DNA of 14,684 bases from Naegleria gruberi (Eukaryota). Shown here one piece after another: positions 886 to 14,684 of the stretch. A program made the position numbers and the translations under genes. The notes below the pieces were generated by a model. The model had not been told where the DNA came from. It saw nothing but the letters and a program-made list of their open reading frames with translations, and made no database searches. Each line of letters begins with the position of its first letter. Position 1 is the stretch's first letter. Location of the stretch: the NCBI GenBank assembly GCA_000004985.1, contig GG738979.1, one strand, 5' to 3'.

Positions 886-3800
886 NNNNNNNNNNNNNNN
901 NNNNNNNNNNNNNNNNNNNNNNNNNNNNNNNNNNNNNNNNNNNNNNNNNNNNNNNNNNNNNNNNNNNNNNNNNNNNNNNNNNNNNNNNNNNNNNNNNNNN
1001 NNNNNNNNNNNNNNNNNNNNNNNNNNNNNNNNNNNNNNNNNNNNNNNNNNNNNNNNNNNNNNNNNNNNNNNNNNNNNNNNNNNNNNNNNNNNNNNNNNNN
1101 NNNNNNNNNNNNNNNNNNNNNNNNNNNNNNNNNNNNNNNNNNNNNNNNNNNNNNNNNNNNNNNNNNNNNNNNNNNNNNNNNNNNNNNNNNNNNNNNNNNN
1201 NNNNNNNNNNNNNNNNNNNNNNNNNNNNNNNNNNNNNNNNNNNNNNNNNNNNNNNNNNNNNNNNNNNNNNNNNNNNNNNNNNNNNNNNNNNNNNNNNNNN
1301 NNNNNNNNNNNNNNNNNNNNNNNNNNNNNNNNNNNNNNNNNNNNNNNNNNNNNNNNNNNNNNNNNNNNNNNNNNNNNNNNNNNNNNNNNNNNNNNNNNNN
1401 NNNNNNNNNNNNNNNNNNNNNNNNNNNNNNNNNNNNNNNNNNNNNNNNNNNNNNNNNNNNNNNNNNNNNNNNNNNNNNNNNNNNNNNNNNNNNNNNNNNN
1501 NNNNNNNNNNNNNNNNNNNNNNNNNNNNNNNNNNNNNNNNNNNNNNNNNNNNNNNNNNNNNNNNNNNNNNNNNNNNNNNNNNNNNNNNNNNNNNNNNNNN
1601 NNNNNNNNNNNNNNNNNNNNNNNNNNNNNNNNNNNNNNNNNNNNNNNNNNNNNNNNNNNNNNNNNNNNNNNNNNNNNNNNNNNNNNNNNNNNNNNNNNNN
1701 NNNNNNNNNNNNNNNNNNNNNNNNNNNNNNNNNNNNNNNNNNNNNNNNNNNNNNNNNNNNNNNNNNNNNNNNNNNNNNNNNNNNNNNNNNNNNNNNNNNN
1801 NNNNNNNNNNNNNNNNNNNNNNNNNNNNNNNNNNNNNNNNNNNNNNNNNNNNNNNNNNNNNNNNNNNNNNNNNNNNNNNNNNNNNNNNNNNNNNNNNNNN
1901 NNNNNNNNNNNNNNNNNNNNNNNNNNNNNNNNNNNNNNNNNNNNNNNNNNNNNNNNNNNNNNNNNNNNNNNNNNNNNNNNNNNNNNNNNNNNNNNNNNNN
2001 NNNNNNNNNNNNNNNNNNNNNNNNNNNNNNNNNNNNNNNNNNNNNNNNNNNNNNNNNNNNNNNNNNNNNNNNNNNNNNNNNNNNNNNNNNNNNNNNNNNN
2101 NNNNNNNNNNNNNNNNNNNNNNNNNNNNNNNNNNNNNNNNNNNNNNNNNNNNNNNNNNNNNNNNNNNNNNNNNNNNNNNNNNNNNNNNNNNNNNNNNNNN
2201 NNNNNNNNNNNNNNNNNNNNNNNNNNNNNNNNNNNNNNNNNNNNNNNNNNNNNNNNNNNNNNNNNNNNNNNNNNNNNNNNNNNNNNNNNNNNNNNNNNNN
2301 NNNNNNNNNNNNNNNNNNNNNNNNNNNNNNNNNNNNNNNNNNNNNNNNNNNNNNNNNNNNNNNNNNNNNNNNNNNNNNNNNNNNNNNNNNNNNNNNNNNN
2401 NNNNNNNNNNNNNNNNNNNNNNNNNNNNNNNNNNNNNNNNNNNNNNNNNNNNNNNNNNNNNNNNNNNNNNNNNNNNNNNNNNNNNNNNNNNNNNNNNNNN
2501 NNNNNNNNNNNNNNNNNNNNNNNNNNNNNNNNNNNNNNNNNNNNNNNNNNNNNNNNNNNNNNNNNNNNNNNNNNNNNNNNNNNNNNNNNNNNNNNNNNNN
2601 NNNNNNNNNNNNNNNNNNNNNNNNNNNNNNNNNNNNNNNNNNNNNNNNNNNNNNNNNNNNNNNNNNNNNNNNNNNNNNNNNNNNNNNNNNNNNNNNNNNN
2701 NNNNNNNNNNNNNNNNNNNNNNNNNNNNNNNNNNNNNNNNNNNNNNNNNNNNNNNNNNNNNNNNNNNNNNNNNNNNNNNNNNNNNNNNNNNNNNNNNNNN
2801 NNNNNNNNNNNNNNNNNNNNNNNNNNNNNNNNNNNNNNNNNNNNNNNNNNNNNNNNNNNNNNNNNNNNNNNNNNNNNNNNNNNNNNNNNNNNNNNNNNNN
2901 NNNNNNNNNNNNNNNNNNNNNNNNNNNNNNNNNNNNNNNNNNNNNNNNNNNNNNNNNNNNNNNNNNNNNNNNNNNNNNNNNNNNNNNNNNNNNNNNNNNN
3001 NNNNNNNNNNNNNNNNNNNNNNNNNNNNNNNNNNNNNNNNNNNNNNNNNNNNNNNNNNNNNNNNNNNNNNNNNNNNNNNNNNNNNNNNNNNNNNNNNNNN
3101 NNNNNNNNNNNNNNNNNNNNNNNNNNNNNNNNNNNNNNNNNNNNNNNNNNNNNNNNNNNNNNNNNNNNNNNNNNNNNNNNNNNNNNNNNNNNNNNNNNNN
3201 NNNNNNNNNNNNNNNNNNNNNNNNNNNNNNNNNNNNNNNNNNNNNNNNNNNNNNNNNNNNNNNNNNNNNNNNNNNNNNNNNNNNNNNNNNNNNNNNNNNN
3301 NNNNNNNNNNNNNNNNNNNNNNNNNNNNNNNNNNNNNNNNNNNNNNNNNNNNNNNNNNNNNNNNNNNNNNNNNNNNNNNNNNNNNNNNNNNNNNNNNNNN
3401 NNNNNNNNNNNNNNNNNNNNNNNNNNNNNNNNNNNNNNNNNNNNNNNNNNNNNNNNNNNNNNNNNNNNNNNNNNNNNNNNNNNNNNNNNNNNNNNNNNNN
3501 NNNNNNNNNNNNNNNNNNNNNNNNNNNNNNNNNNNNNNNNNNNNNNNNNNNNNNNNNNNNNNNNNNNNNNNNNNNNNNNNNNNNNNNNNNNNNNNNNNNN
3601 NNNNNNNNNNNNNNNNNNNNNNNNNNNNNNNNNNNNNNNNNNNNNNNNNNNNNNNNNNNNNNNNNNNNNNNNNNNNNNNNNNNNNNNNNNNNNNNNNNNN
3701 NNNNNNNNNNNNNNNNNNNNNNNNNNNNNNNNNNNNNNNNNNNNNNNNNNNNNNNNNNNNNNNNNNNNNNNNNNNNNNNNNNNNNNNNNNNNNNNNNNNN

Positions 3801-5792
3801 NNNNNNNNNNNNNNNNNNNNNNNNNNNNNNNNNNNNNNNNNNNNNNNNNNNNNNNNNNNNNNNNNNNNNNNNNNNNNNNNNNNNNNNNNNNNNNNNNNNN
3901 NNNNNNNNNNNNNNNNNNNNNNNNNNNNNNNNNNNNNNNNNNNNNNNNNNNNNNNNNNNNNNNNNNNNNNNNNNNNNNNNNNNNNNNNNNNNNNNNNNNN
4001 NNNNNNNNNNNNNNNNNNNNNNNNNNNNNNNNNNNNNNNNNNNNNNNNNNNNNNNNNNNNNNNNNNNNNNNNNNNNNNNNNNNNNNNNNNNNNNNNNNNN
4101 NNNNNNNNNNNNNNNNNNNNNNNNNNNNNNNNNNNNNNNNNNNNNNNNNNNNNNNNNNNNNNNNNNNNNNNNNNNNNNNNNNNNNNNNNNNNNNNNNNNN
4201 NNNNNNNNNNNNNNNNNNNNNNNNNNNNNNNNNNNNNNNNNNNNNNNNNNNNNNNNNNNNNNNNNNNNNNNNNNNNNNNNNNNNNNNNNNNNNNNNNNNN
4301 NNNNNNNNNNNNNNNNNNNNNNNNNNNNNNNNNNNNNNNNNNNNNNNNNNNNNNNNNNNNNNNNNNNNNNNNNNNNNNNNNNNNNNNNNNNNNNNNNNNN
4401 NNNNNNNNNNNNNNNNNNNNNNNNNNNNNNNNNNNNNNNNNNNNNNNNNNNNNNNNNNNNNNNNNNNNNNNNNNNNNNNNNNNNNNNNNNNNNNNNNNNN
4501 NNNNNNNNNNNNNNNNNNNNNNNNNNNNNNNNNNNNNNNNNNNNNNNNNNNNNNNNNNNNNNNNNNNNNNNNNNNNNNNNNNNNNNNNNNNNNNNNNNNN
4601 NNNNNNNNNNNNNNNNNNNNNNNNNNNNNNNNNNNNNNNNNNNNNNNNNNNNNNNNNNNNNNNNNNNNNNNNNNNNNNNNNNNNNNNNNNNNNNNNNNNN
4701 NNNNNNNNNNNNNNNNNNNNNNNNNNNNNNNNNNNNNNNNNNNNNNNNNNNNNNNNNNNNNNNNNNNNNNNNNNNNNNNNNNNNNNNNNNNNNNNNNNNN
4801 NNNNNNNNNNNNNNNNNNNNNNNNNNNNNNNNNNNNNNNNNNNNNNNNNNNNNNNNNNNNNNNNNNNNNNNNNNNNNNNNNNNNNNNNNNNNNNNNNNNN
4901 NNNNNNNNNNNNNNNNNNNNNNNNNNNNNNNNNNNNNNNNNNNNNNNNNNNNNNNNNNNNNNNNNNNNNNNNNNNNNNNNNNNNNNNNNNNNNNNNNNNN
5001 NNNNNNNNNNNNNNNNNNNNNNNNNNNNNNNNNNNNNNNNNNNNNNNNNNNNNNNNNNNNNNNNNNNNNNNNNNNNNNNNNNNNNNNNNNNNNNNNNNNN
5101 NNNNNNNNNNNNNNNNNNNNNNNNNNNNNNNNNNNNNNNNNNNNNNNNNNNNNNNNNNNNNNNNNNNNNNNNNNNNNNNNNNNNNNNNNNNNNNNNNNNN
5201 NNNNNNNNNNNNNNNNNNNNNNNNNNNNNNNNNNNNNNNNNNNNNNNNNNNNNNNNNNNNNNNNNNNNNNNNNNNNNNNNNNNNNNNNNNNNNNNNNNNN
5301 NNNNNNNNNNNNNNNNNNNNNNNNNNNNNNNNNNNNNNNNNNNNNNNNNNNNNNNNNNNNNNNNNNNNNNNNNNNNNNNNNNNNNNNNNNNNNNNNNNNN
5401 NNNNNNNNNNNNNNNNNNNNNNNNNNNNNNNNNNNNNNNNNNNNNNNNNNNNNNNNNNNNNNNNNNNNNNNNNNNNNNNNNNNNNNNNNNNNNNNNNNNN
5501 NNNNNNNNNNNNNNNNNNNNNNNNNNNNNNNNNNNNNNNNNNNNNNNNNNNNNNNNNNNNNNNNNNNNNNNNNNNNNNNNNNNNNNNNNNNNNNNNNNNN
5601 NNNNNNNNNNNNNNNNNNNNNNNNNNNNNNNNNNNNNNNNNNNNNNNNNNNNNNNNNNNNNNNNNNNNNNNNNNNNNNNNNNNNNNNNNNNNNNNNNNNN
5701 NNNNNNNNNNNNNNNNNNNNNNNNNNNNNNNNNNNNNNNNNNNNNNNNNNNNNNNNNNNNNNNNNNNNNNNNNNNNNNNNNNNNNNNNNNNN
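886..5792. other. N-masked block of 4907 nt whose content cannot be assessed. It is bracketed by candidate in-frame start and stop codons on both strands. On the plus strand these are ATG 859-861 and TAG 5794-5796. On the minus strand they are ATG at 5797-5799 and TGA at 883-885, which lies immediately next to the mask. One large CDS of about 1640 codons is plausible, but the strand is undetermined.
   Basis: The ORF-track frames through the Ns are open only because N translates to X. What is real is the flanking codons: the minus-strand TGA abuts the mask exactly, and the minus-strand ATG sits 4 nt from the other edge. This mirrors the layout of the better-supported gene at 7995-13496. Confidence 0.3.
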
Positions 5793-6730
5793 GTAGCATG
5801 AAATATCGGAACTTGGCAAATTGATAAGATGATGAAAATCTGATAATAAATATGATGTTTATTATCTATTTAAATAGTAGTACTAAAAGACATGATTCAA
5901 GTTGGTGAAGTACATGTTGAGTTATGGTCCATGTACTTTTTCAAAATTCACATGTACCTATCCCTATCATAACTTGACCAAAATTGATAAGATAAAGTTC
6001 TCCTACCTACTATTGACTATTCCGAACAATGCTACATTGACAGTTTTCCAACTTATCCAGTAGATCCAACGGTGATGAATTTAGTGAAAATTTTGACATT
6101 TCACCAAAATTACATTACTAAAAATTAATTTCCACAAATACTATTATTATATTGATGGAAAACAATAATGATGATGGTTGGTAAATGATCCGATGATGGA
6201 ACACCAAATTGTGATTTTCCATCAAGAAAAATAAATTCCAATTTCATGATGATAATCCACCAATAAAAATTACTAATATTACTACTATTTAGATAATGTT
6301 GAGATGATGTTGTGAAAGTTTGGTGGTTTCATGATGTAAAACCGCTCCGAGAATGGTCATGTCCATAGAGGACCATTTGTTGAATATTTTTTGATTCTTT
6401 TGTTTAAAAAATATCACTTCACTCCTAGTATCTTCATTTCAATATGGAAAACATTGATATTCAATGTACATCATCTTTGGATATCCGTCAATATTAAAAT
6501 AATTAATTTTATTGTTTAAAATCATCAAGAAATTTAAATATAATGCCATCATCTTTAGATGAATCTTGGAAAACTTTCAAATCAATAAGACTCTCGGATG
6601 TTGTTCGAACAGATTGAGTTGTTGTTCTAATAGTATTCCTCAAGTTTACTCTTTGAAATTATTTTTATTTGGTTCAAAGTCGATTTTTTAAGAATAAAGT
6701 AATATTTATTAACGTCTTTTGTATCGTAAA

Positions 6731-6748
6731 GACCTGAGAGACGAGGTC
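6731..6748 (-). terminator. Hairpin with a 5-bp stem and 8-nt loop (gacct gagagacg aggtc), located 35 nt downstream of the stop codon of the 6783-7145 ORF on the minus strand. An AATAAA on the minus strand (plus-strand tttatt at 6705-6710) follows about 20 nt further on. This is a candidate 3'-end processing region.
   Basis: The inverted repeat is seen directly, as is the AATAAA hexamer on the transcribed strand. The functional role is inference only. Confidence 0.25.
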
Positions 6749-6782
6749 TACAACCAGTAAGTTTCGGTTCAGCGTTTAAGTG

Positions 6783-7145
6783 TTATGGGTTGATGCTAAG
6801 TGGTTGGTTAGACTGAGCTTGCCTGTGGTAGGCAGAGAGGTTTTTCCTGTTAATAGTGAAGCTTGCATTGGGACGGTTGTACCACACTGAGTTCTTGTAG
6901 CAATTTTCCAAATAAATAGCTAGTGCTTTGTAGACTTCTAGGGCCACATTCTTAGGTATTCTTTTGCGCTTAGACCAGTTAAGCCAGTCATTACGGGAGC
7001 AACGACCATCAAATTCTATCATAAGTTGAGAGGATTCTGAGATATCAGGAGGGAAACGAATCTTGTTAAGGCTAAATTTCTGGGAGATAGAGTCCCATGT
7101 GGCATACTAAATAACCCAAATAAATCAACTCTGAATCCTAACCAT
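6783..7145 (-). CDS. Small, compositionally distinct ORF, possibly a histone-fold (H4-like architecture) protein of about 108 aa. It would require a 36-nt GT..AG intron (7107-7142) directly after the ATG at 7143-7145. The uninterrupted ORF is 6783-7022 (79 aa), and the frame stays open upstream to 7106. The alternative reading is a pseudogene relic of a pogo/Tc5-type transposase HTH.
   Basis: The region 6715-7110 is clearly GC-richer than its surroundings and uses codons that are rare elsewhere in the window (CGT, CGC, TGC, TCC, GCC). The translation is KRIPKNVALEVYKALAIYLENCYKNSVWY...SFTINRKNLSAYHRQ. It aligns without gaps to the H4 alpha2-L2 region [29 protein letters not shown]...KTVTAMDVVYALKRQ. 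The spacings are identical: KRI to LEN is 17 residues and LEN to Y is 8 residues, and the L2 signature T-[IV]-x3-[DN]-[IL] is present. The N-terminal 45 residues are not basic, so this is not a canonical H4. The segment FDGRCSRNDWLNWSKRKRI also resembles the SNGWLDRFRRRHGV motif of HTH_Tnp_Tc5 (CENP-B/pogo). In-frame stops upstream are bypassed only if the 36-nt intron is real. Confidence 0.35.
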
Positions 7146-7274
7146 TGCTGTGTTGCACCTCTTTTCTTCTTCTTTCCAGTTCAACTCAAAGTAACAAAAG
7201 AACCTTGGAGGTTTACCGTGATTTCTGATTCCATTTTACCAACTGTACCATGTTATCATGATAAACTAAACTCT

Positions 7275-7282
7275 ATAAATAC
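7275..7282 (+). promoter_or_regulatory. Consensus TATA box (TATAAATA) lying 59-66 nt upstream of the ATG at 7341. It sits in the 195-bp divergent intergenic region between the 6783-7145 ORF (minus) and the 7341-7949 gene (plus).
   Basis: Exact TATAAATA match, flanked by the comparatively GC-containing acgagtcc. AT-rich background makes chance matches common, so confidence is low. Confidence 0.3.
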
Positions 7283-7340
7283 GAGTCCAATAACATGACA
7301 CAACCCAAAACCAACTTCAAAAAAACAAGTCAACCAACAA

Positions 7341-7949
7341 ATGCCTCCACCACCTCCACCAAGCAATAATAGCATTATTAGTACTTCTCAAGGATTTACT
7401 CCACCACCACCTCCTGGAATAAACAGTTCTTTCAAAGTAGGAGGAGGCACTCCACCACCTCCTGGATCATTCTCTCCAATGATTCAAGATCCAGTTTCCA
7501 TTCCAGTGATTGGAGGAAAGGTCAATAAGGTTCAAGCAAAAAAGTCAACGAAACAGTACATTAATGTGAGAGAAATTATTGGACCAAAAGATGTTTTCCA
7601 AGCATTGAGAATTGCTCCATCAGTTTTTAAGGAATTATTTGGAGTTTCTTATCCAAATAATTCAGAATATTTGGAAGGTCAACAAATTGCTCAAGTTGTC
7701 TTTGAAGATTTCGAATTAAATTTGATTTGGGCGAGGGATATGAGTCAAACTGATGATTCGTATGCAGTTCCATATGCCATGACTGATAGTACTCATGCCT
7801 TGTGGGAATTGTTGGGAAATAATGGTTTCGAATTGAGAGATTCGAGAAATTATCTCACCTATCAAACTAATAGAGTGAGCAGATTTAATGGAAGAATGTT
7901 ATGCGAAAGAGTATTCAACTCAAAACAAAATCAATATAAATTATTATAA
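7341..7949 (+). CDS. Hypothetical 202-aa protein. Its N-terminus carries three polyproline tracts (PPPPPP, PPPPP, PPPP) spaced 13-15 residues apart, in the style of a formin FH1 or WASP-type profilin/SH3-binding region. The C-terminal half (about 150 aa) is unrecognised. The stop codon is TAA.
   Basis: Uninterrupted ORF from ATG 7341 (context caacaaATGcc, A-rich upstream) to TAA 7947-7949. Proline is encoded almost entirely by CCA/CCT, matching the AT-rich host codon bias. All 12 glutamines are CAA/CAG. A TATA box lies upstream. No domain assignment is possible by eye. Confidence 0.65.
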   Translation: MPPPPPPSNNSIISTSQGFTPPPPPGINSSFKVGGGTPPPPGSFSPMIQDPVSIPVIGGKVNKVQAKKSTKQYINVREIIGPKDVFQALRIAPSVFKELFGVSYPNNSEYLEGQQIAQVVFEDFELNLIWARDMSQTDDSYAVPYAMTDSTHALWELLGNNGFELRDSRNYLTYQTNRVSRFNGRMLCERVFNSKQNQYKLL

Positions 7950-7994
7950 TAAATTAATTTTTTGTTGTACAATTTACAATAAAATTACAATAAA

Positions 7995-10900
7995 TTAATG
8001 AGTGAACTTTTCAATATTCTCTCGTAACCAAACATCTATTTCGTTAATGGTTATTCCACCAGATTTGTCAGTATCAATTACATCGAAGAAGTATGTTACA
8101 TGATCTCCACTTGGTATTCCCAATTCAAATTGTTTGAATAAATCTGTTAAGAATTGATCAAATTCATCTCTATCTATTTTACCATCCACATTAGTATCGT
8201 ACTTTCTGAAAATTGATTGTAAAACTTCAACTTGTTTGGTGGTATTCTTTTCAGCAAGATATGAATCGAGAANNNNNNNNNNNNNNNNNNNNNNNNNNNN
8301 NNNNNNNNNNNNNNNNNNNNNNNNNNNNNNNNNNNNNNNNNNNNNNNNNNNNNNNNNNNNNNNNNNNNNNNNNNNNNNNNNNNNNNNNNNNNNNNNNNNN
8401 NNNNNNNNNNNNNNNNNNNNNNNNNNNNNNNNNNNNNNNNNNNNNNNNNNNNNNNNNNNNNNNNNNNNNNNNNNNNNNNNNNNNNNNNNNNNNNNNNNNN
8501 NNNNNNNNNNNNNNNNNNNNNNNNNNNNNNNNNNNNNNNNNNNNNNNNNNNNNNNNNNNNNNNNNNNNNNNNNNNNNNNNNNNNNNNNNNNNNNNNNNNN
8601 NNNNNNNNNNNNNNNNNNNNNNNNNNNNNNNNNNNNNNNNNNNNNNNNNNNNNNNNNNNNNNNNNNNNNNNNNNNNNNNNNNNNNNNNNNNNNNNNNNNN
8701 NNNNNNNNNNNNNNNNNNNNNNNNNNNNNNNNNNNNNNNNNNNNNNNNNNNNNNNNNNNNNNNNNNNNNNNNNNNNNNNNNNNNNNNNNNNNNNNNNNNN
8801 NNNNNNNNNNNNNNNNNNNNNNNNNNNNNNNNNNNNNNNNNNNNNNNNNNNNNNNNNNNNNNNNNNNNNNNNNNNNNNNNNNNNNNNNNNNNNNNNNNNN
8901 NNNNNNNNNNNNNNNNNNNNNNNNNNNNNNNNNNNNNNNNNNNNNNNNNNNNNNNNNNNNNNNNNNNNNNNNNNNNNNNNNNNNNNNNNNNNNNNNNNNN
9001 NNNNNNNNNNNNNNNNNNNNNNNNNNNNNNNNNNNNNNNNNNNNNNNNNNNNNNNNNNNNNNNNNNNNNNNNNNNNNNNNNNNNNNNNNNNNNNNNNNNN
9101 NNNNNNNNNNNNNNNNNNNNNNNNNNNNNNNNNNNNNNNNNNNNNNNNNNNNNNNNNNNNNNNNNNNNNNNNNNNNNNNNNNNNNNNNNNNNNNNNNNNN
9201 NNNNNNNNNNNNNNNNNNNNNNNNNNNNNNNNNNNNNNNNNNNNNNNNNNNNNNNNNNNNNNNNNNNNNNNNNNNNNNNNNNNNNNNNNNNNNNNNNNNN
9301 NNNNNNNNNNNNNNNNNNNNNNNNNNNNNNNNNNNNNNNNNNNNNNNNNNNNNNNNNNNNNNNNNNNNNNNNNNNNNNNNNNNNNNNNNNNNNNNNNNNN
9401 NNNNNNNNNNNNNNNNNNNNNNNNNNNNNNNNNNNNNNNNNNNNNNNNNNNNNNNNNNNNNNNNNNNNNNNNNNNNNNNNNNNNNNNNNNNNNNNNNNNN
9501 NNNNNNNNNNNNNNNNNNNNNNNNNNNNNNNNNNNNNNNNNNNNNNNNNNNNNNNNNNNNNNNNNNNNNNNNNNNNNNNNNNNNNNNNNNNNNNNNNNNN
9601 NNNNNNNNNNNNNNNNNNNNNNNNNNNNNNNNNNNNNNNNNNNNNNNNNNNNNNNNNNNNNNNNNNNNNNNNNNNNNNNNNNNNNNNNNNNNNNNNNNNN
9701 NNNNNNNNNNNNNNNNNNNNNNNNNNNNNNNNNNNNNNNNNNNNNNNNNNNNNNNNNNNNNNNNNNNNNNNNNNNNNNNNNNNNNNNNNNNNNNNNNNNN
9801 NNNNNNNNNNNNNNNNNNNNNNNNNNNNNNNNNNNNNNNNNNNNNNNNNNNNNNNNNNNNNNNNNNNNNNNNNNNNNNNNNNNNNNNNNNNNNNNNNNNN
9901 NNNNNNNNNNNNNNNNNNNNNNNNNNNNNNNNNNNNNNNNNNNNNNNNNNNNNNNNNNNNNNNNNNNNNNNNNNNNNNNNNNNNNNNNNNNNNNNNNNNN
10001 NNNNNNNNNNNNNNNNNNNNNNNNNNNNNNNNNNNNNNNNNNNNNNNNNNNNNNNNNNNNNNNNNNNNNNNNNNNNNNNNNNNNNNNNNNNNNNNNNNNN
10101 NNNNNNNNNNNNNNNNNNNNNNNNNNNNNNNNNNNNNNNNNNNNNNNNNNNNNNNNNNNNNNNNNNNNNNNNNNNNNNNNNNNNNNNNNNNNNNNNNNNN
10201 NNNNNNNNNNNNNNNNNNNNNNNNNNNNNNNNNNNNNNNNNNNNNNNNNNNNNNNNNNNNNNNNNNNNNNNNNNNNNNNNNNNNNNNNNNNNNNNNNNNN
10301 NNNNNNNNNNNNNNNNNNNNNNNNNNNNNNNNNNNNNNNNNNNNNNNNNNNNNNNNNNNNNNNNNNNNNNNNNNNNNNNNNNNNNNNNNNNNNNNNNNNN
10401 NNNNNNNNNNNNNNNNNNNNNNNNNNNNNNNNNNNNNNNNNNNNNNNNNNNNNNNNNNNNNNNNNNNNNNNNNNNNNNNNNNNNNNNNNNNNNNNNNNNN
10501 NNNNNNNNNNNNNNNNNNNNNNNNNNNNNNNNNNNNNNNNNNNNNNNNNNNNNNNNNNNNNNNNNNNNNNNNNNNNNNNNNNNNNNNNNNNNNNNNNNNN
10601 NNNNNNNNNNNNNNNNNNNNNNNNNNNNNNNNNNNNNNNNNNNNNNNNNNNNNNNNNNNNNNNNNNNNNNNNNNNNNNNNNNNNNNNNNNNNNNNNNNNN
10701 NNNNNNNNNNNNNNNNNNNNNNNNNNNNNNNNNNNNNNNNNNNNNNNNNNNNNNNNNNNNNNNNNNNNNNNNNNNNNNNNNNNNNNNNNNNNNNNNNNNN
10801 NNNNNNNNNNNNNNNNNNNNNNNNNNNNNNNNNNNNNNNNNNNNNNNNNNNNNNNNNNNNNNNNNNNNNNNNNNNNNNNNNNNNNNNNNNNNNNNNNNNN

Positions 10901-13496
10901 NNNNNNNNNNNNNNNNNNNNNNNNNNNNNNNNNNNNNNNNNNNNNNNNNNNNNNNNNNNNNNNNNNNNNNNNNNNNNNNNNNNNNNNNNNNNNNNNNNNN
11001 NNNNNNNNNNNNNNNNNNNNNNNNNNNNNNNNNNNNNNNNNNNNNNNNNNNNNNNNNNNNNNNNNNNNNNNNNNNNNNNNNNNNNNNNNNNNNNNNNNNN
11101 NNNNNNNNNNNNNNNNNNNNNNNNNNNNNNNNNNNNNNNNNNNNNNNNNNNNNNNNNNNNNNNNNNNNNNNNNNNNNNNNNNNNNNNNNNNNNNNNNNNN
11201 NNNNNNNNNNNNNNNNNNNNNNNNNNNNNNNNNNNNNNNNNNNNNNNNNNNNNNNNNNNNNNNNNNNNNNNNNNNNNNNNNNNNNNNNNNNNNNNNNNNN
11301 NNNNNNNNNNNNNNNNNNNNNNNNNNNNNNNNNNNNNNNNNNNNNNNNNNNNNNNNNNNNNNNNNNNNNNNNNNNNNNNNNNNNNNNNNNNNNNNNNNNN
11401 NNNNNNNNNNNNNNNNNNNNNNNNNNNNNNNNNNNNNNNNNNNNNNNNNNNNNNNNNNNNNNNNNNNNNNNNNNNNNNNNNNNNNNNNNNNNNNNNNNNN
11501 NNNNNNNNNNNNNNNNNNNNNNNNNNNNNNNNNNNNNNNNNNNNNNNNNNNNNNNNNNNNNNNNNNNNNNNNNNNNNNNNNNNNNNNNNNNNNNNNNNNN
11601 NNNNNNNNNNNNNNNNNNNNNNNNNNNNNNNNNNNNNNNNNNNNNNNNNNNNNNNNNNNNNNNNNNNNNNNNNNNNNNNNNNNNNNNNNNNNNNNNNNNN
11701 NNNNNNNNNNNNNNNNNNNNNNNNNNNNNNNNNNNNNNNNNNNNNNNNNNNNNNNNNNNNNNNNNNNNNNNNNNNNNNNNNNNNNNNNNNNNNNNNNNNN
11801 NNNNNNNNNNNNNNNNNNNNNNNNNNNNNNNNNNNNNNNNNNNNNNNNNNNNNNNNNNNNNNNNNNNNNNNNNNNNNNNNNNNNNNNNNNNNNNNNNNNN
11901 NNNNNNNNNNNNNNNNNNNNNNNNNNNNNNNNNNNNNNNNNNNNNNNNNNNNNNNNNNNNNNNNNNNNNNNNNNNNNNNNNNNNNNNNNNNNNNNNNNNN
12001 NNNNNNNNNNNNNNNNNNNNNNNNNNNNNNNNNNNNNNNNNNNNNNNNNNNNNNNNNNNNNNNNNNNNNNNNNNNNNNNNNNNNNNNNNNNNNNNNNNNN
12101 NNNNNNNNNNNNNNNNNNNNNNNNNNNNNNNNNNNNNNNNNNNNNNNNNNNNNNNNNNNNNNNNNNNNNNNNNNNNNNNNNNNNNNNNNNNNNNNNNNNN
12201 NNNNNNNNNNNNNNNNNNNNNNNNNNNNNNNNNNNNNNNNNNNNNNNNNNNNNNNNNNNNNNNNNNNNNNNNNNNNNNNNNNNNNNNNNNNNNNNNNNNN
12301 NNNNNNNNNNNNNNNNNNNNNNNNNNNNNNNNNNNNNNNNNNNNNNNNNNNNNNNNNNNNNNNNNNNNNNNNNNNNNNNNNNNNNNNNNNNNNNNNNNNN
12401 NNNNNNNNNNNNNNNNNNNNNNNNNNNNNNNNNNNNNNNNNNNNNNNNNNNNNNNNNNNNNNNNNNNNNNNNNNNNNNNNNNNNNNNNNNNNNNNNNNNN
12501 NNNNNNNNNNNNNNNNNNNNNNNNNNNNNNNNNNNNNNNNNNNNNNNNNNNNNNNNNNNNNNNNNNNNNNNNNNNNNNNNNNNNNNNNNNNNNNNNNNNN
12601 NNNNNNNNNNNNNNNNNNNNNNNNNNNNNNNNNNNNNNNNNNNNNNNNNNNNNNNNNNNNNNNNNNNNNNNNNNNNNNNNNNNNNNNNNNNNNNNNNNNN
12701 NNNNNNNNNNNNNNNNNNNNNNNNNNNNNNNNNNNNNNNNNNNNNNNNNNNNNNNNNNNNNNNNNNNNNNNNNNNNNNNNNNNNNNNNNNNNNNNNNNNN
12801 NNNNNNNNNNNNNNNNNNNNNNNNNNNNNNNNNNNNNNNNNNNNNNNNNNNNNNNNNNNNNNNNNNNNNNNNNNNNNNNNNNNNNNNNNNNNNNNNNNNN
12901 NNNNNNNNNNNNNNNNNNNNNNNNNNNNNNNNNNNNNNNNNNNNNNNNNNNNNNNNNNNNNNNNNNNNNNNNNNNNNNNNNNNNNNNNNNNNNNNNNNNN
13001 NNNNNNNNNNNNNNNNNNNNNNNNNNNNNNNNNNNNNNNNNNNNNNNNNNNNNNNNNNNNNNNNNNNNNNNNNNNNNNNNNNNNNNNNNNNNNNNNNNNN
13101 NNNNNNNNNNNNNNNNNNNNNNNNNNNNNNNNNNNNNNNNNNNNNNNNNNNNNNNNNNNNNNNNNNNNNNNNNNNNNNNNNNNNNNNNNNNNNNNNNNNN
13201 NNNNNNNNNNNNNNNNNNNNNNNNNNNNNNNNNNNNNNNNNNNNNNNNNNNNNNNNNNNNNNNNNNNNNNNNNNNNNNNNNNNNNNNNNNNNNNNNNNNN
13301 NNNNNNNNNNNNNNNNNNNNNNNNNNNNNNNNNNNNNNNNNNNNNNNNNNNNNNNNNNNNNNNNNNNNNNNNNNNNNNNNNNNNNNNNNNNNNNNNNNNN
13401 NNNNNNNNNNNNNNNNNNNNNNNNNNNNNNNNNNNNNNNNNNNNNNNNNNNNNNNNNNNNNNNNNNNNNNNNNNNNNNNNNNNNNNNNNNTTTCAT
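7995..13496 (-). CDS. Large protein of about 1830 codons if continuous through the masked block. Its C-terminus carries a pair of canonical EF-hand calcium-binding loops. Only 7995-8272 (91 aa plus the TAA stop) and the first two codons (ATG AAA at 13491-13496) are visible.
   Basis: Visible C-terminal translation: ...FRKYDTNVDGKIDRDEFDQFL...FFDVIDTDKSGGITINEIDVWLRENIEKFTH*. The loops DTNVDGKIDRDE (8163-8198) and DTDKSGGITINE (8040-8075) fit the 12-residue EF-hand consensus D-x-[DN]-x-[DS]-G-x-I-x3-E. The stop is TAA at 7995-7997, only 45 nt from the stop of the convergent 7341-7949 gene. The start ATG at 13494-13496 is inferred from the track, and the body is masked and unverifiable. Confidence 0.6.
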   Translation of the reverse strand: MKXXXXXXXXXXXXXXXXXXXXXXXXXXXXXXXXXXXXXXXXXXXXXXXXXXXXXXXXXXXXXXXXXXXXXXXXXXXXXXXXXXXXXXXXXXXXXXXXXXXXXXXXXXXXXXXXXXXXXXXXXXXXXXXXXXXXXXXXXXXXXXXXXXXXXXXXXXXXXXXXXXXXXXXXXXXXXXXXXXXXXXXXXXXXXXXXXXXXXXXXXXXXXXXXXXXXXXXXXXXXXXXXXXXXXXXXXXXXXXXXXXXXXXXXXXXXXXXXXXXXXXXXXXXXXXXXXXXXXXXXXXXXXXXXXXXXXXXXXXXXXXXXXXXXXXXXXXXXXXXXXXXXXXXXXXXXXXXXXXXXXXXXXXXXXXXXXXXXXXXXXXXXXXXXXXXXXXXXXXXXXXXXXXXXXXXXXXXXXXXXXXXXXXXXXXXXXXXXXXXXXXXXXXXXXXXXXXXXXXXXXXXXXXXXXXXXXXXXXXXXXXXXXXXXXXXXXXXXXXXXXXXXXXXXXXXXXXXXXXXXXXXXXXXXXXXXXXXXXXXXXXXXXXXXXXXXXXXXXXXXXXXXXXXXXXXXXXXXXXXXXXXXXXXXXXXXXXXXXXXXXXXXXXXXXXXXXXXXXXXXXXXXXXXXXXXXXXXXXXXXXXXXXXXXXXXXXXXXXXXXXXXXXXXXXXXXXXXXXXXXXXXXXXXXXXXXXXXXXXXXXXXXXXXXXXXXXXXXXXXXXXXXXXXXXXXXXXXXXXXXXXXXXXXXXXXXXXXXXXXXXXXXXXXXXXXXXXXXXXXXXXXXXXXXXXXXXXXXXXXXXXXXXXXXXXXXXXXXXXXXXXXXXXXXXXXXXXXXXXXXXXXXXXXXXXXXXXXXXXXXXXXXXXXXXXXXXXXXXXXXXXXXXXXXXXXXXXXXXXXXXXXXXXXXXXXXXXXXXXXXXXXXXXXXXXXXXXXXXXXXXXXXXXXXXXXXXXXXXXXXXXXXXXXXXXXXXXXXXXXXXXXXXXXXXXXXXXXXXXXXXXXXXXXXXXXXXXXXXXXXXXXXXXXXXXXXXXXXXXXXXXXXXXXXXXXXXXXXXXXXXXXXXXXXXXXXXXXXXXXXXXXXXXXXXXXXXXXXXXXXXXXXXXXXXXXXXXXXXXXXXXXXXXXXXXXXXXXXXXXXXXXXXXXXXXXXXXXXXXXXXXXXXXXXXXXXXXXXXXXXXXXXXXXXXXXXXXXXXXXXXXXXXXXXXXXXXXXXXXXXXXXXXXXXXXXXXXXXXXXXXXXXXXXXXXXXXXXXXXXXXXXXXXXXXXXXXXXXXXXXXXXXXXXXXXXXXXXXXXXXXXXXXXXXXXXXXXXXXXXXXXXXXXXXXXXXXXXXXXXXXXXXXXXXXXXXXXXXXXXXXXXXXXXXXXXXXXXXXXXXXXXXXXXXXXXXXXXXXXXXXXXXXXXXXXXXXXXXXXXXXXXXXXXXXXXXXXXXXXXXXXXXXXXXXXXXXXXXXXXXXXXXXXXXXXXXXXXXXXXXXXXXXXXXXXXXXXXXXXXXXXXXXXXXXXXXXXXXXXXXXXXXXXXXXXXXXXXXXXXXXXXXXXXXXXXXXXXXXXXXXXXXXXXXXXXXXXXXXXXXXXXXXXXXXXXXXXXXXXXXXXXXXXXXXXXXXXXXXXXXXXXXXXXXXXXXXXXXXXXXXXXXXXXXXXXXXXXXXXXXXXXXXXXXXXXXXXXXXXXXXXXXXXXXXXXXXXXXXXXXXXXXXXXXXXXXXXXXXXXXXXXXXXXXXXXXXXXXXXXXXXXXXXXXXXXXXXXXXXXXLDSYLAEKNTTKQVEVLQSIFRKYDTNVDGKIDRDEFDQFLTDLFKQFELGIPSGDHVTYFFDVIDTDKSGGITINEIDVWLRENIEKFTH

Positions 13497-13959
13497 GCTA
13501 CCAGAGTTGATTCATAGCCCAATTACAAATCAAACAACAATAAAACAACAATTCATAATGTTTATTATGTTATTAAATGTATAATTTCAAGTCTTGTAGC
13601 ATAATTTGTGAAAATCATGGATATCTGATATTTTCATGTTTTTATTGTTTTTCTCATGATGTGGATATTGAATTCTCACTGAAACATCACGAATAGCATG
13701 TCATTCATCCATTCTCTACCAGATAATTATCTTTTACTGTAATTTTCACTATTGGATATATTACTTTTAATATTTGTGATACTTTACTATTTTATTCAAT
13801 GAATAAGGGATGAAAAACATTCATTAGAAGAAGATAGATTCCCAGTAATATATTCTCTCTCTGTACAATTTATTATTTCAATATCTGTCAAGTTAATTGA
13901 GATAGAAGGTTTTTCATCAGCTCATATCAAAATAGCTGGAGTTGAACTACCTTGAAAAA

Positions 13960-14031
13960 GAAGTCTGGAAATTCCAGGAAAGAATTTGGAACAAAAATCT
14001 TTCCTAGAAAATCCAGAGAAAAATCTTTCCG
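13960..14031. promoter_or_regulatory. Cluster of short symmetric and repeated elements 470-540 bp upstream of the 7995-13496 gene start. It contains a 13-nt perfect palindrome (ctggaaattccag, 13964-13976) and two copies of aaaaatctttcc (13993-14004 and 14019-14030, 26 nt apart). The GGAAA/TTTCC half-sites are reiterated in both orientations.
   Basis: Seen directly in the sequence. The location is an intergenic region between the 3' end of the MYND gene and the start of the large EF-hand gene. Function is inference only. Confidence 0.25.
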
Positions 14032-14316
14032 GCTACATCATCCAATATAATTATTGTTCTTTCCATCCCTTAACAAACTTTCCGATAAATGAAACTCTTC
14101 TTCAAACCGATTTTCTCAAATTTTTTCAACAGAAGAGCCTTAATACTTGTTGAGGTATTTTTTTAAGGTTTTTAACAAACAATTCCACTCTCCACAAGAA
14201 CAACGTTCATTTGAAATTGCTACTATTAAACATTATCTATGTATTTCATGATGAAATTGCTGATAAATGGTGAATATCTTCATCACAAGCTGAAACTCAT
14301 CAAGAATAAAGGCATC

Positions 14317-14684
14317 CTAAGCCTTTTTAGTGCATTCCGGTTTGTGGTTTTGCCAATCTTTAACTTGGCAATCTCTACAACAATACTTGACTTTTCCACA
14401 TCTGGAGCAACTTTTAAGTGGCTCTCCCTTCTCACCACAAAGATTTTTACAAGTTGCGCATTTATCCACTTGTTTCTTAGTGTTATTCAATGACTTTTTG
14501 AGACTTGTATATTTTGTATTGATTAATTTCTCTGCCTCTGCTCCAAATTGACTTCCTATGAGATCATAAAATAATGTTTCCACAGGTGCCATATCATCCA
14601 TCTGATTCACAATAAATCCCAAAAGTGTATCAACATTGATCTTTCCTTTTGAGCTTTCATGTCTCAATGCAACTGTTATAATTT
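14317..14684 (-). CDS. 3' portion of a gene encoding a protein with a C-terminal MYND-type zinc finger. The 5' part lies beyond the window edge. The stop is TAG at 14317-14319.
   Basis: Translation: ...CATCKNLCGEKGEPLKSCSRCGKVKYCCRDCQVKDWQNHKPECTKKA*. This matches the MYND pattern C-x2-C-x(7-12)-C-x2-C-x(5-6)-C-x3-C-x7-H-x3-C and occupies about 14332-14460. The frame stays open from M at 14665-14667 to the window end (..IITVCM..), so the gene is partial. Confidence 0.75.
   Translation of the reverse strand, partial: IITVALRHESSKGKINVDTLLGFIVNQMDDMAPVETLFYDLIGSQFGAEAEKLINTKYTSLKKSLNNTKKQVDKCATCKNLCGEKGEPLKSCSRCGKVKYCCRDCQVKDWQNHKPECTKKA

Follow-up and report, generated by a model that had tools for sequence, protein, structure and literature searches.

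A 5'-truncated fragment, very probably of a LINE-type retrotransposon, near a chromosome end of Naegleria gruberi

Organization and composition of the locus

The window, that is the whole stretch of 14,684 bases of Naegleria gruberi DNA that we analyzed, consists of three sequence blocks (1-885, 5793-8272 and 13491-14684) separated by two runs of N (886-5792, 4,907 bases; 8273-13490, 5,218 bases). As the N runs amount to 69% of the window, the sequence that separates the telomere from the LINE fragment described below is mostly unseen. Three host genes and the parts of the fragment are listed in Table 1. The product of the proline-rich gene (7341-7947), which owes this name to its N-terminus, is identical to the N. 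gruberi predicted protein P0026 in 190 out of 192 residues (99%) and has a metagenomic relative, P0027, at 52% identity; no Pfam domain was found in it. The gene is convergent with the EF-hand gene, with only approximately 50 nt between the two stop codons.

All three host genes end with TAA or TAG, and every glutamine codon read in their sequences is CAA or CAG, none being TAA or TAG. Together with the 99% identity of the neighboring gene to N. gruberi this argues for the standard code. A Paramecium origin with the ciliate genetic code, in which TAA stands for glutamine, had been suggested by the C3A3 telomere repeat and was rejected: this code would make the convergent genes overlap by approximately 290 nt. 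Judged by its sequence, the window is chromosome-end DNA of N. gruberi that is read with the standard code.

The first 231 positions are occupied by 36 tandem CCCAAA units, two CCCAA variants among them, forming a telomere-like (TTTGGG)n array. According to a 2013 survey of eukaryotic telomeres, nothing was on record about those of N. gruberi (PMC3622300), and we found no later report on them. A second, AT-rich repeat at 5794-6057 matches positions 5285-5548 of the related metagenomic contig L004 with 75.7% identity over 267 nt, the match being cut off on both sides, by the N run in the window and by the contig end in L004. Its orientation relative to the LINE differs in L004, and we therefore regard it as a dispersed repeat and not as the same locus; possibly it is subtelomeric. 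In the AT-rich non-coding blocks of the window the tetranucleotide CATG, often as part of TCATGA or CATGA, is more common than expected (8 observed versus 1.6 expected in 232-885, 8 versus 2.3 in 5793-6692, and 5 versus 1.6 in 13491-14118). This excess is absent from the LINE fragment.

Table 1. Coordinates of host genes and of the parts of the retrotransposon fragment in the window.
Feature	Position	Strand	Basis or remark
3' UTR of the element, approximately 90 nt	6693..6782	-	DNA alignment with L001 and L002
Best-conserved block of the 3' UTR	6713..6749	-	two alternative stem-loops
TAA stop of the element ORF	6783..6785	-	lies where the N. gruberi copies have their C-terminus
Final 107 codons of the retrotransposon RT ORF (ORF2), tail 3' of the CCHC knuckle	6786..7106	-	tblastn
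5' truncation junction	7106..7107	.	strong protein and DNA matches all begin at 7106
Host spacer up to the start codon of the divergent gene	7107..7340	.	outside the element
Proline-rich protein gene	7341-7950	+	host gene
EF-hand protein gene	7998-8272	-	ends at 7998; Pfam
zf-MYND protein gene	14317-14682+	-	Pfam

The sequence-only reading of this DNA had described positions 6715-7145 as a GC-rich island that differs sharply in composition and codon choice from everything around it. The island is real. Its GC content is 0.413 (0.408 if calculated for the refined element, 6693-7106), compared to 0.284 in the left flank (5793-6692) and approximately 0.28 in the subtelomeric and other non-coding blocks. 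The open frame of the element shows a GC3 of 0.477, and the three host genes range from 0.233 to 0.288, with 0.238 for the proline-rich gene. The sharpness of the contrast applies toward the left flank; it does not extend to the right, where the spacer (0.346) and the proline-rich gene (0.362) follow. The limits of the feature also had to be revised, since the homologous element spans 6693-7106 and leaves 7107-7145 outside. The raised GC content and the deviating codon usage would be properties of the element and not of the host.

Relatives of the open frame and their domain order

Using tblastn, the last 107 amino acids of four N. gruberi 'predicted proteins' from four different contigs (P0003, P0017, P0018 and P0019, forming one cluster) were placed on window positions 7106-6786 with 95-97% identity and E-values of 1e-60 to 1e-67. 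The tail is also found at the end of P0031, a fifth N. gruberi model, which comes from a contig of yet another length; the host gene beside the window copy has a reference contig that differs in length from these as well. More divergent relatives within this organism are P0006, P0011 and P0030. Identity of the tail is 58-67% with P0001, P0002, P0004 and P0021. A word-indexed protein search with the 107-residue frame retrieved two metagenomic proteins with 61-67% identity. Both extend N-terminally, reading C-x2-C-x7-H-x4-C-PKCAPEKHEL and then YATWD, and it is at YATWD that the frame in the window opens. A HMMER search with a profile of three tail sequences yielded 15 proteins, and a metagenome scan with peptide patterns gave 66 pattern matches, none of which was confirmed. 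The element family has multiple copies, both in N. gruberi and among related environmental sequences; its copy number and consensus ends were taken from N. gruberi gene models and from three contigs of metagenomic origin.

The longer relatives reveal what precedes the tail. Pfam reports a reverse transcriptase domain (RVT_1) directly upstream of it in the more distant relatives P0008 (4.4e-39), P0009 (1.8e-37), P0021 (6.5e-28), P0028 (6.4e-33) and P0029 (1.2e-33), and the tail profile matches P0008, P0009, P0021 and P0028 at 7e-15 to 2e-53. For the closest homologues the only Pfam match was zf-RVT at an E-value of 6.6. A C-x2-C-x7-H-x4-C knuckle is present in 18 out of 18 relatives covering the region, and in all 18 an invariant CYKN..W motif follows 74-80 residues later. 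Among the related contigs the longest is L004 (5.5 kb). It holds a near-complete copy in which a 524-residue ORF1 with a coiled coil precedes an ORF2; the latter matches Exo_endo_phos weakly at its N-terminus and also contains RVT_1. The models P0019 and P0031 show the order weak RRM, coiled coil, APE-like region, RT remnants, CCHC knuckle and tail. At the N-terminal position expected of an endonuclease, P0019, P0029 and P0031 matched Exo_endo_phos and Exo_endo_phos_2 with E-values of 1e-4 to 2e-3, which is below the Pfam gathering cut-off. The motifs QE, GDLN and PDH were read by eye, and a search by sequence for a solved structure matching the APE-like region returned none.

The order of ORF1, endonuclease-like region, RT and CCHC knuckle in the relatives is that of a non-LTR (LINE) retrotransposon. 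We conclude that the minus strand of 6693-7106 is very probably a 5'-truncated, non-autonomous copy of an N. gruberi family of this type. By alignment the fragment shares homology with the outermost C-terminal part of proteins with the order endonuclease-like, RT, CCHC and tail. Of the RT ORF it evidently retains no more than the final 107 codons and the stop codon, followed by approximately 90 nt of 3' UTR. The window copy lacks an RT domain because it is truncated, and it lacks the knuckle because the truncation point, 7106, is located 14 codons downstream of where the knuckle would lie.

A mobile element had already been considered as a second option by the sequence-only reading, in the form of a decayed DNA transposon of the pogo/Tc5 (DDE) type that would explain the foreign composition and the upstream stops without an intron. 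The mobile nature of the segment and its explanatory value were borne out; the class was not, as the element is assigned to the LINEs. The segment MIEFDGRCSRNDWLNWSKRKRI bears a superficial likeness to the SNGWLxRFxxRHxI box of HTH_Tnp_Tc5. Yet in none of the frames tested did HTH_Tnp_Tc5, DDE or CENP-B give a match at E≤10, the longer relatives carry RVT_1 and not a transposase, and no terminal inverted repeats surround the segment. A pogo/Tc5 origin is for these reasons hardly credible. Several genomic copies combined with the lack of a histone match, which had been named as signs of a transposon relic, were both found.

Compared to APE-type LINEs (L1/Tx1 group), the family shares the two ORFs seen in L004, the RVT_1 domain and the multi-copy state, as well as a common 3' end combined with variable 5' ends and a weak Exo_endo_phos-like region at the N-terminus of ORF2. 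The cysteine-rich motif of LINE ORF2 proteins is C-x(1-3)-C-x(7-8)-H-x4-C, and the C-x2-C-x7-H-x4-C of the family fits it. There are differences as well. Unlike APE-type LINEs, the window copy has neither a poly(A) tail nor a detectable target-site duplication, approximately 110 residues including the invariant CYKN..W follow the knuckle, and in the ORF1-like part the weak RRM precedes the coiled coil instead of following it. If the RT regions are compared by sequence to solved structures, the closest is that of R2 (E 1e-24), a LINE of the type with a restriction-like endonuclease, and LINE-1 ORF2p is matched with an E-value of 2e-15.

Limits of the fragment and alternative readings

The frame from 7106 to 6786 contains no frameshift and no internal stop, and ends where the N. 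gruberi copies end with ...SNQPLS[IV]NP. The 3' UTR that follows is conserved at the DNA level with indels that are out of frame, and ends near ...GACGTTAATAAATATTACTTTATT. Blastn homology covers 7106-6705 with respect to L001 and 7106-6690 with respect to L002, and all three sequences have a common 3' UTR up to ...ACTTTATT. Their 5' ends vary: homology to L001 begins at 7106 in the window and at approximately 863 in L002, and L001 reaches further in the 5' direction. At positions 3-71 of L001 the LINE frame extends upstream across one in-frame TAA (…KKTFS*MGQLNHEF…), which suggests that this metagenomic relative is degraded or that its start was miscalled.

The shared 3' end shows no A-run in the window or in L002, i.e. 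neither a poly(A) nor a simple-repeat tail was found there. To our knowledge such tails are not universal among LINE clades, and the missing poly(A) is therefore not disqualifying. Comparison of the flanks for a target-site duplication gave only a match of 5-6 nt (TTTATT/TTATT), the exact 3' terminus being uncertain; in DNA as AT-rich as this the match is not meaningful.

Two stem-loops are possible as alternatives in the best-conserved block of the 3' UTR, one from AGACCT/AGGTCT at 6730-6749 and the other from GTCTCT..(A/G)AGAC. RNAalifold predicted nine pairs for this block on three copies, all of them conserved, and no compensatory changes were observed among the three. The block may be a 3'-end recognition element for the RT of the element. 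In AT-rich genomes an island of high GC content often turns out to be an RNA gene, and the local hairpin at 6730-6749 in such an island could also be taken as a hint towards a structured non-coding RNA gene. Rfam, however, gave no match at E≤1 over 5790-8275, and the folding energy is no better than that of shuffled sequences (z-scores of +0.43 and +0.36 on the two strands). Moreover, conservation at the protein level with divergence of the synonymous type explains the region, so that an RNA gene has next to no probability.

On the 5' side, tblastn detected no similarity upstream of 7106 to those N. gruberi copies that are 97% identical downstream of it. The homology to these copies breaks off abruptly at 7106, and we therefore place the truncation there. 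Weak tblastn extensions beyond this point (P0007, P0009, P0014 and P0024) were judged to be due to chance, because the 97%-identical copies have no similarity in this part.

This junction also bears on the first interpretation that had been offered, namely a divergent histone H4-like gene, maybe a telomere- or centromere-associated variant, with a start codon at 7145-7143 and an intron of 36 nt. The elements of this proposal exist as such: the ATG, the GT..AG segment (7142-7107) that would join the frame, and the in-frame TAT at 7106-7104. Start codon and 'intron', however, lie in the host spacer, outside of the homologous element. The 3' 'AG' of this supposed intron falls on the 5' junction, and this is why the frame opens there. 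The residues quoted in favor of a histone core (KRI, LEN, the Y eight residues later, T-I-x3-N-L and RQ) are also present in the minus-strand translation with their spacing. Over one stretch (KRI...LEN...Y) 10 out of 32 residues are identical to human H4, a long helix is predicted there for the fragment, and hhalign picks the same 32 residues.

That this spacing exceeds chance was not upheld. The hhalign comparison of the family alignment to human H4 gives a probability of 0.5% (E 0.11 for a single comparison), so there is no statistical support for the resemblance. In Pfam, the 108-residue product and the longer frame matched no family at E≤10, which applies to Histone (PF00125), CENP-T/W/S/X and TAF as well as to HTH_Tnp_Tc5 (PF03221) and DDE. 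In contrast to H4, the fragment has no basic N-terminal tail and belongs to a multi-copy family that is contiguous with an RT ORF in the relatives. The 'LEN...Y' of the histone reading is part of the CYKN..W motif. We consider a histone H4-like gene at this position extremely improbable.

Under the explanation that we prefer, a truncated LINE copy, established LINE biology suggests that the fragment arose by target-primed reverse transcription which started at the 3' end of the element RNA and whose early stop left a dead-on-arrival fragment. The intact frame of 107 codons together with 96-97% identity to paralogues argues for a young insertion and not for selection on this copy. One must keep in mind that the intact frame fits a young insertion and by itself does not exclude expression.

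The fragment is located 234 bp upstream of the start of the proline-rich gene at 7341, in divergent orientation, and approximately 6.5 kb from the telomeric repeats if the 4.9-kb N run is included. Taken together with the intact frame, this proximity could be read as a sign that the host has exapted the fragment as a small protein (79-108 amino acids), an exon or a regulatory element, all the more as truncated copies figure among the annotated gene models of N. gruberi, for example P0018 with 161 amino acids. Nevertheless, a young copy sharing 96-97% identity with its paralogues is expected to have an intact frame. A conserved start is missing, in-frame stops occur in the upstream host sequence, and conservation at a syntenic position could not be demonstrated. 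The gene models were predicted automatically, and some of them are plainly chimeric. Exaptation is in our opinion very unlikely. The fragment would have no function of its own, and at most it might disturb the promoter region of the host gene.

The tail domain and implications for annotation

A profile search assigned the tail domain to no Pfam family and, by sequence, to no solved chain. In the N. gruberi subfamily the tail has the spacing R-x-PPD ... E/D ... K/R. This could be taken as the trace of a degenerate restriction-like endonuclease of the PD-(D/E)XK fold, inherited from R2-type ancestors, which would make the family one with both an APE and an RLE ('Dualen-like'). A fold search with a tail model returned R2 proteins as best matches, all of them non-significant, with no histone among the matches; a first AlphaFold model, calculated from an alignment of three sequences, reached a pLDDT of 55 and was set aside. 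Conservation of the candidate catalytic residues does not extend to the distant subfamily. Dualen/RandI-like LINEs possess an APE and a catalytically competent PD-(D/E)XK RLE after the CCHC knuckle. Here the APE signal is weak, and the R2 fold matches are non-significant. We regard the degenerate-endonuclease interpretation as rather doubtful. If it were true, a heterolobosean lineage with APE plus RLE would inform on the transition between the two endonuclease types of LINEs, and the copy in the window would be a dead fragment all the same.

The feature is an ordinary repeat fragment: the telomere-adjacent, 'histone-like' open frame is the tail of a truncated retrotransposon and matters little beyond annotation hygiene. 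In public annotation the N. gruberi proteins with this tail are named 'predicted protein'. Six N. gruberi models (P0003, P0017, P0018, P0019, P0030 and P0031) are LINE fragments or chimeras of host and LINE sequence, as observed for P0019, in which EGF repeats are fused to parts of ORF1 and ORF2, and for P0030, in which a PB1 domain is fused to the LINE tail. These six should be masked before surveys of gene families or histone variants are carried out. Recognizable transposable elements are reportedly very few in N. gruberi, 0.28% in one survey, and only a small fraction of its repeats has been classified as known transposable elements. Describing a LINE family whose C-terminal domain is distinctive would thus modestly improve the repeat libraries of Heterolobosea.
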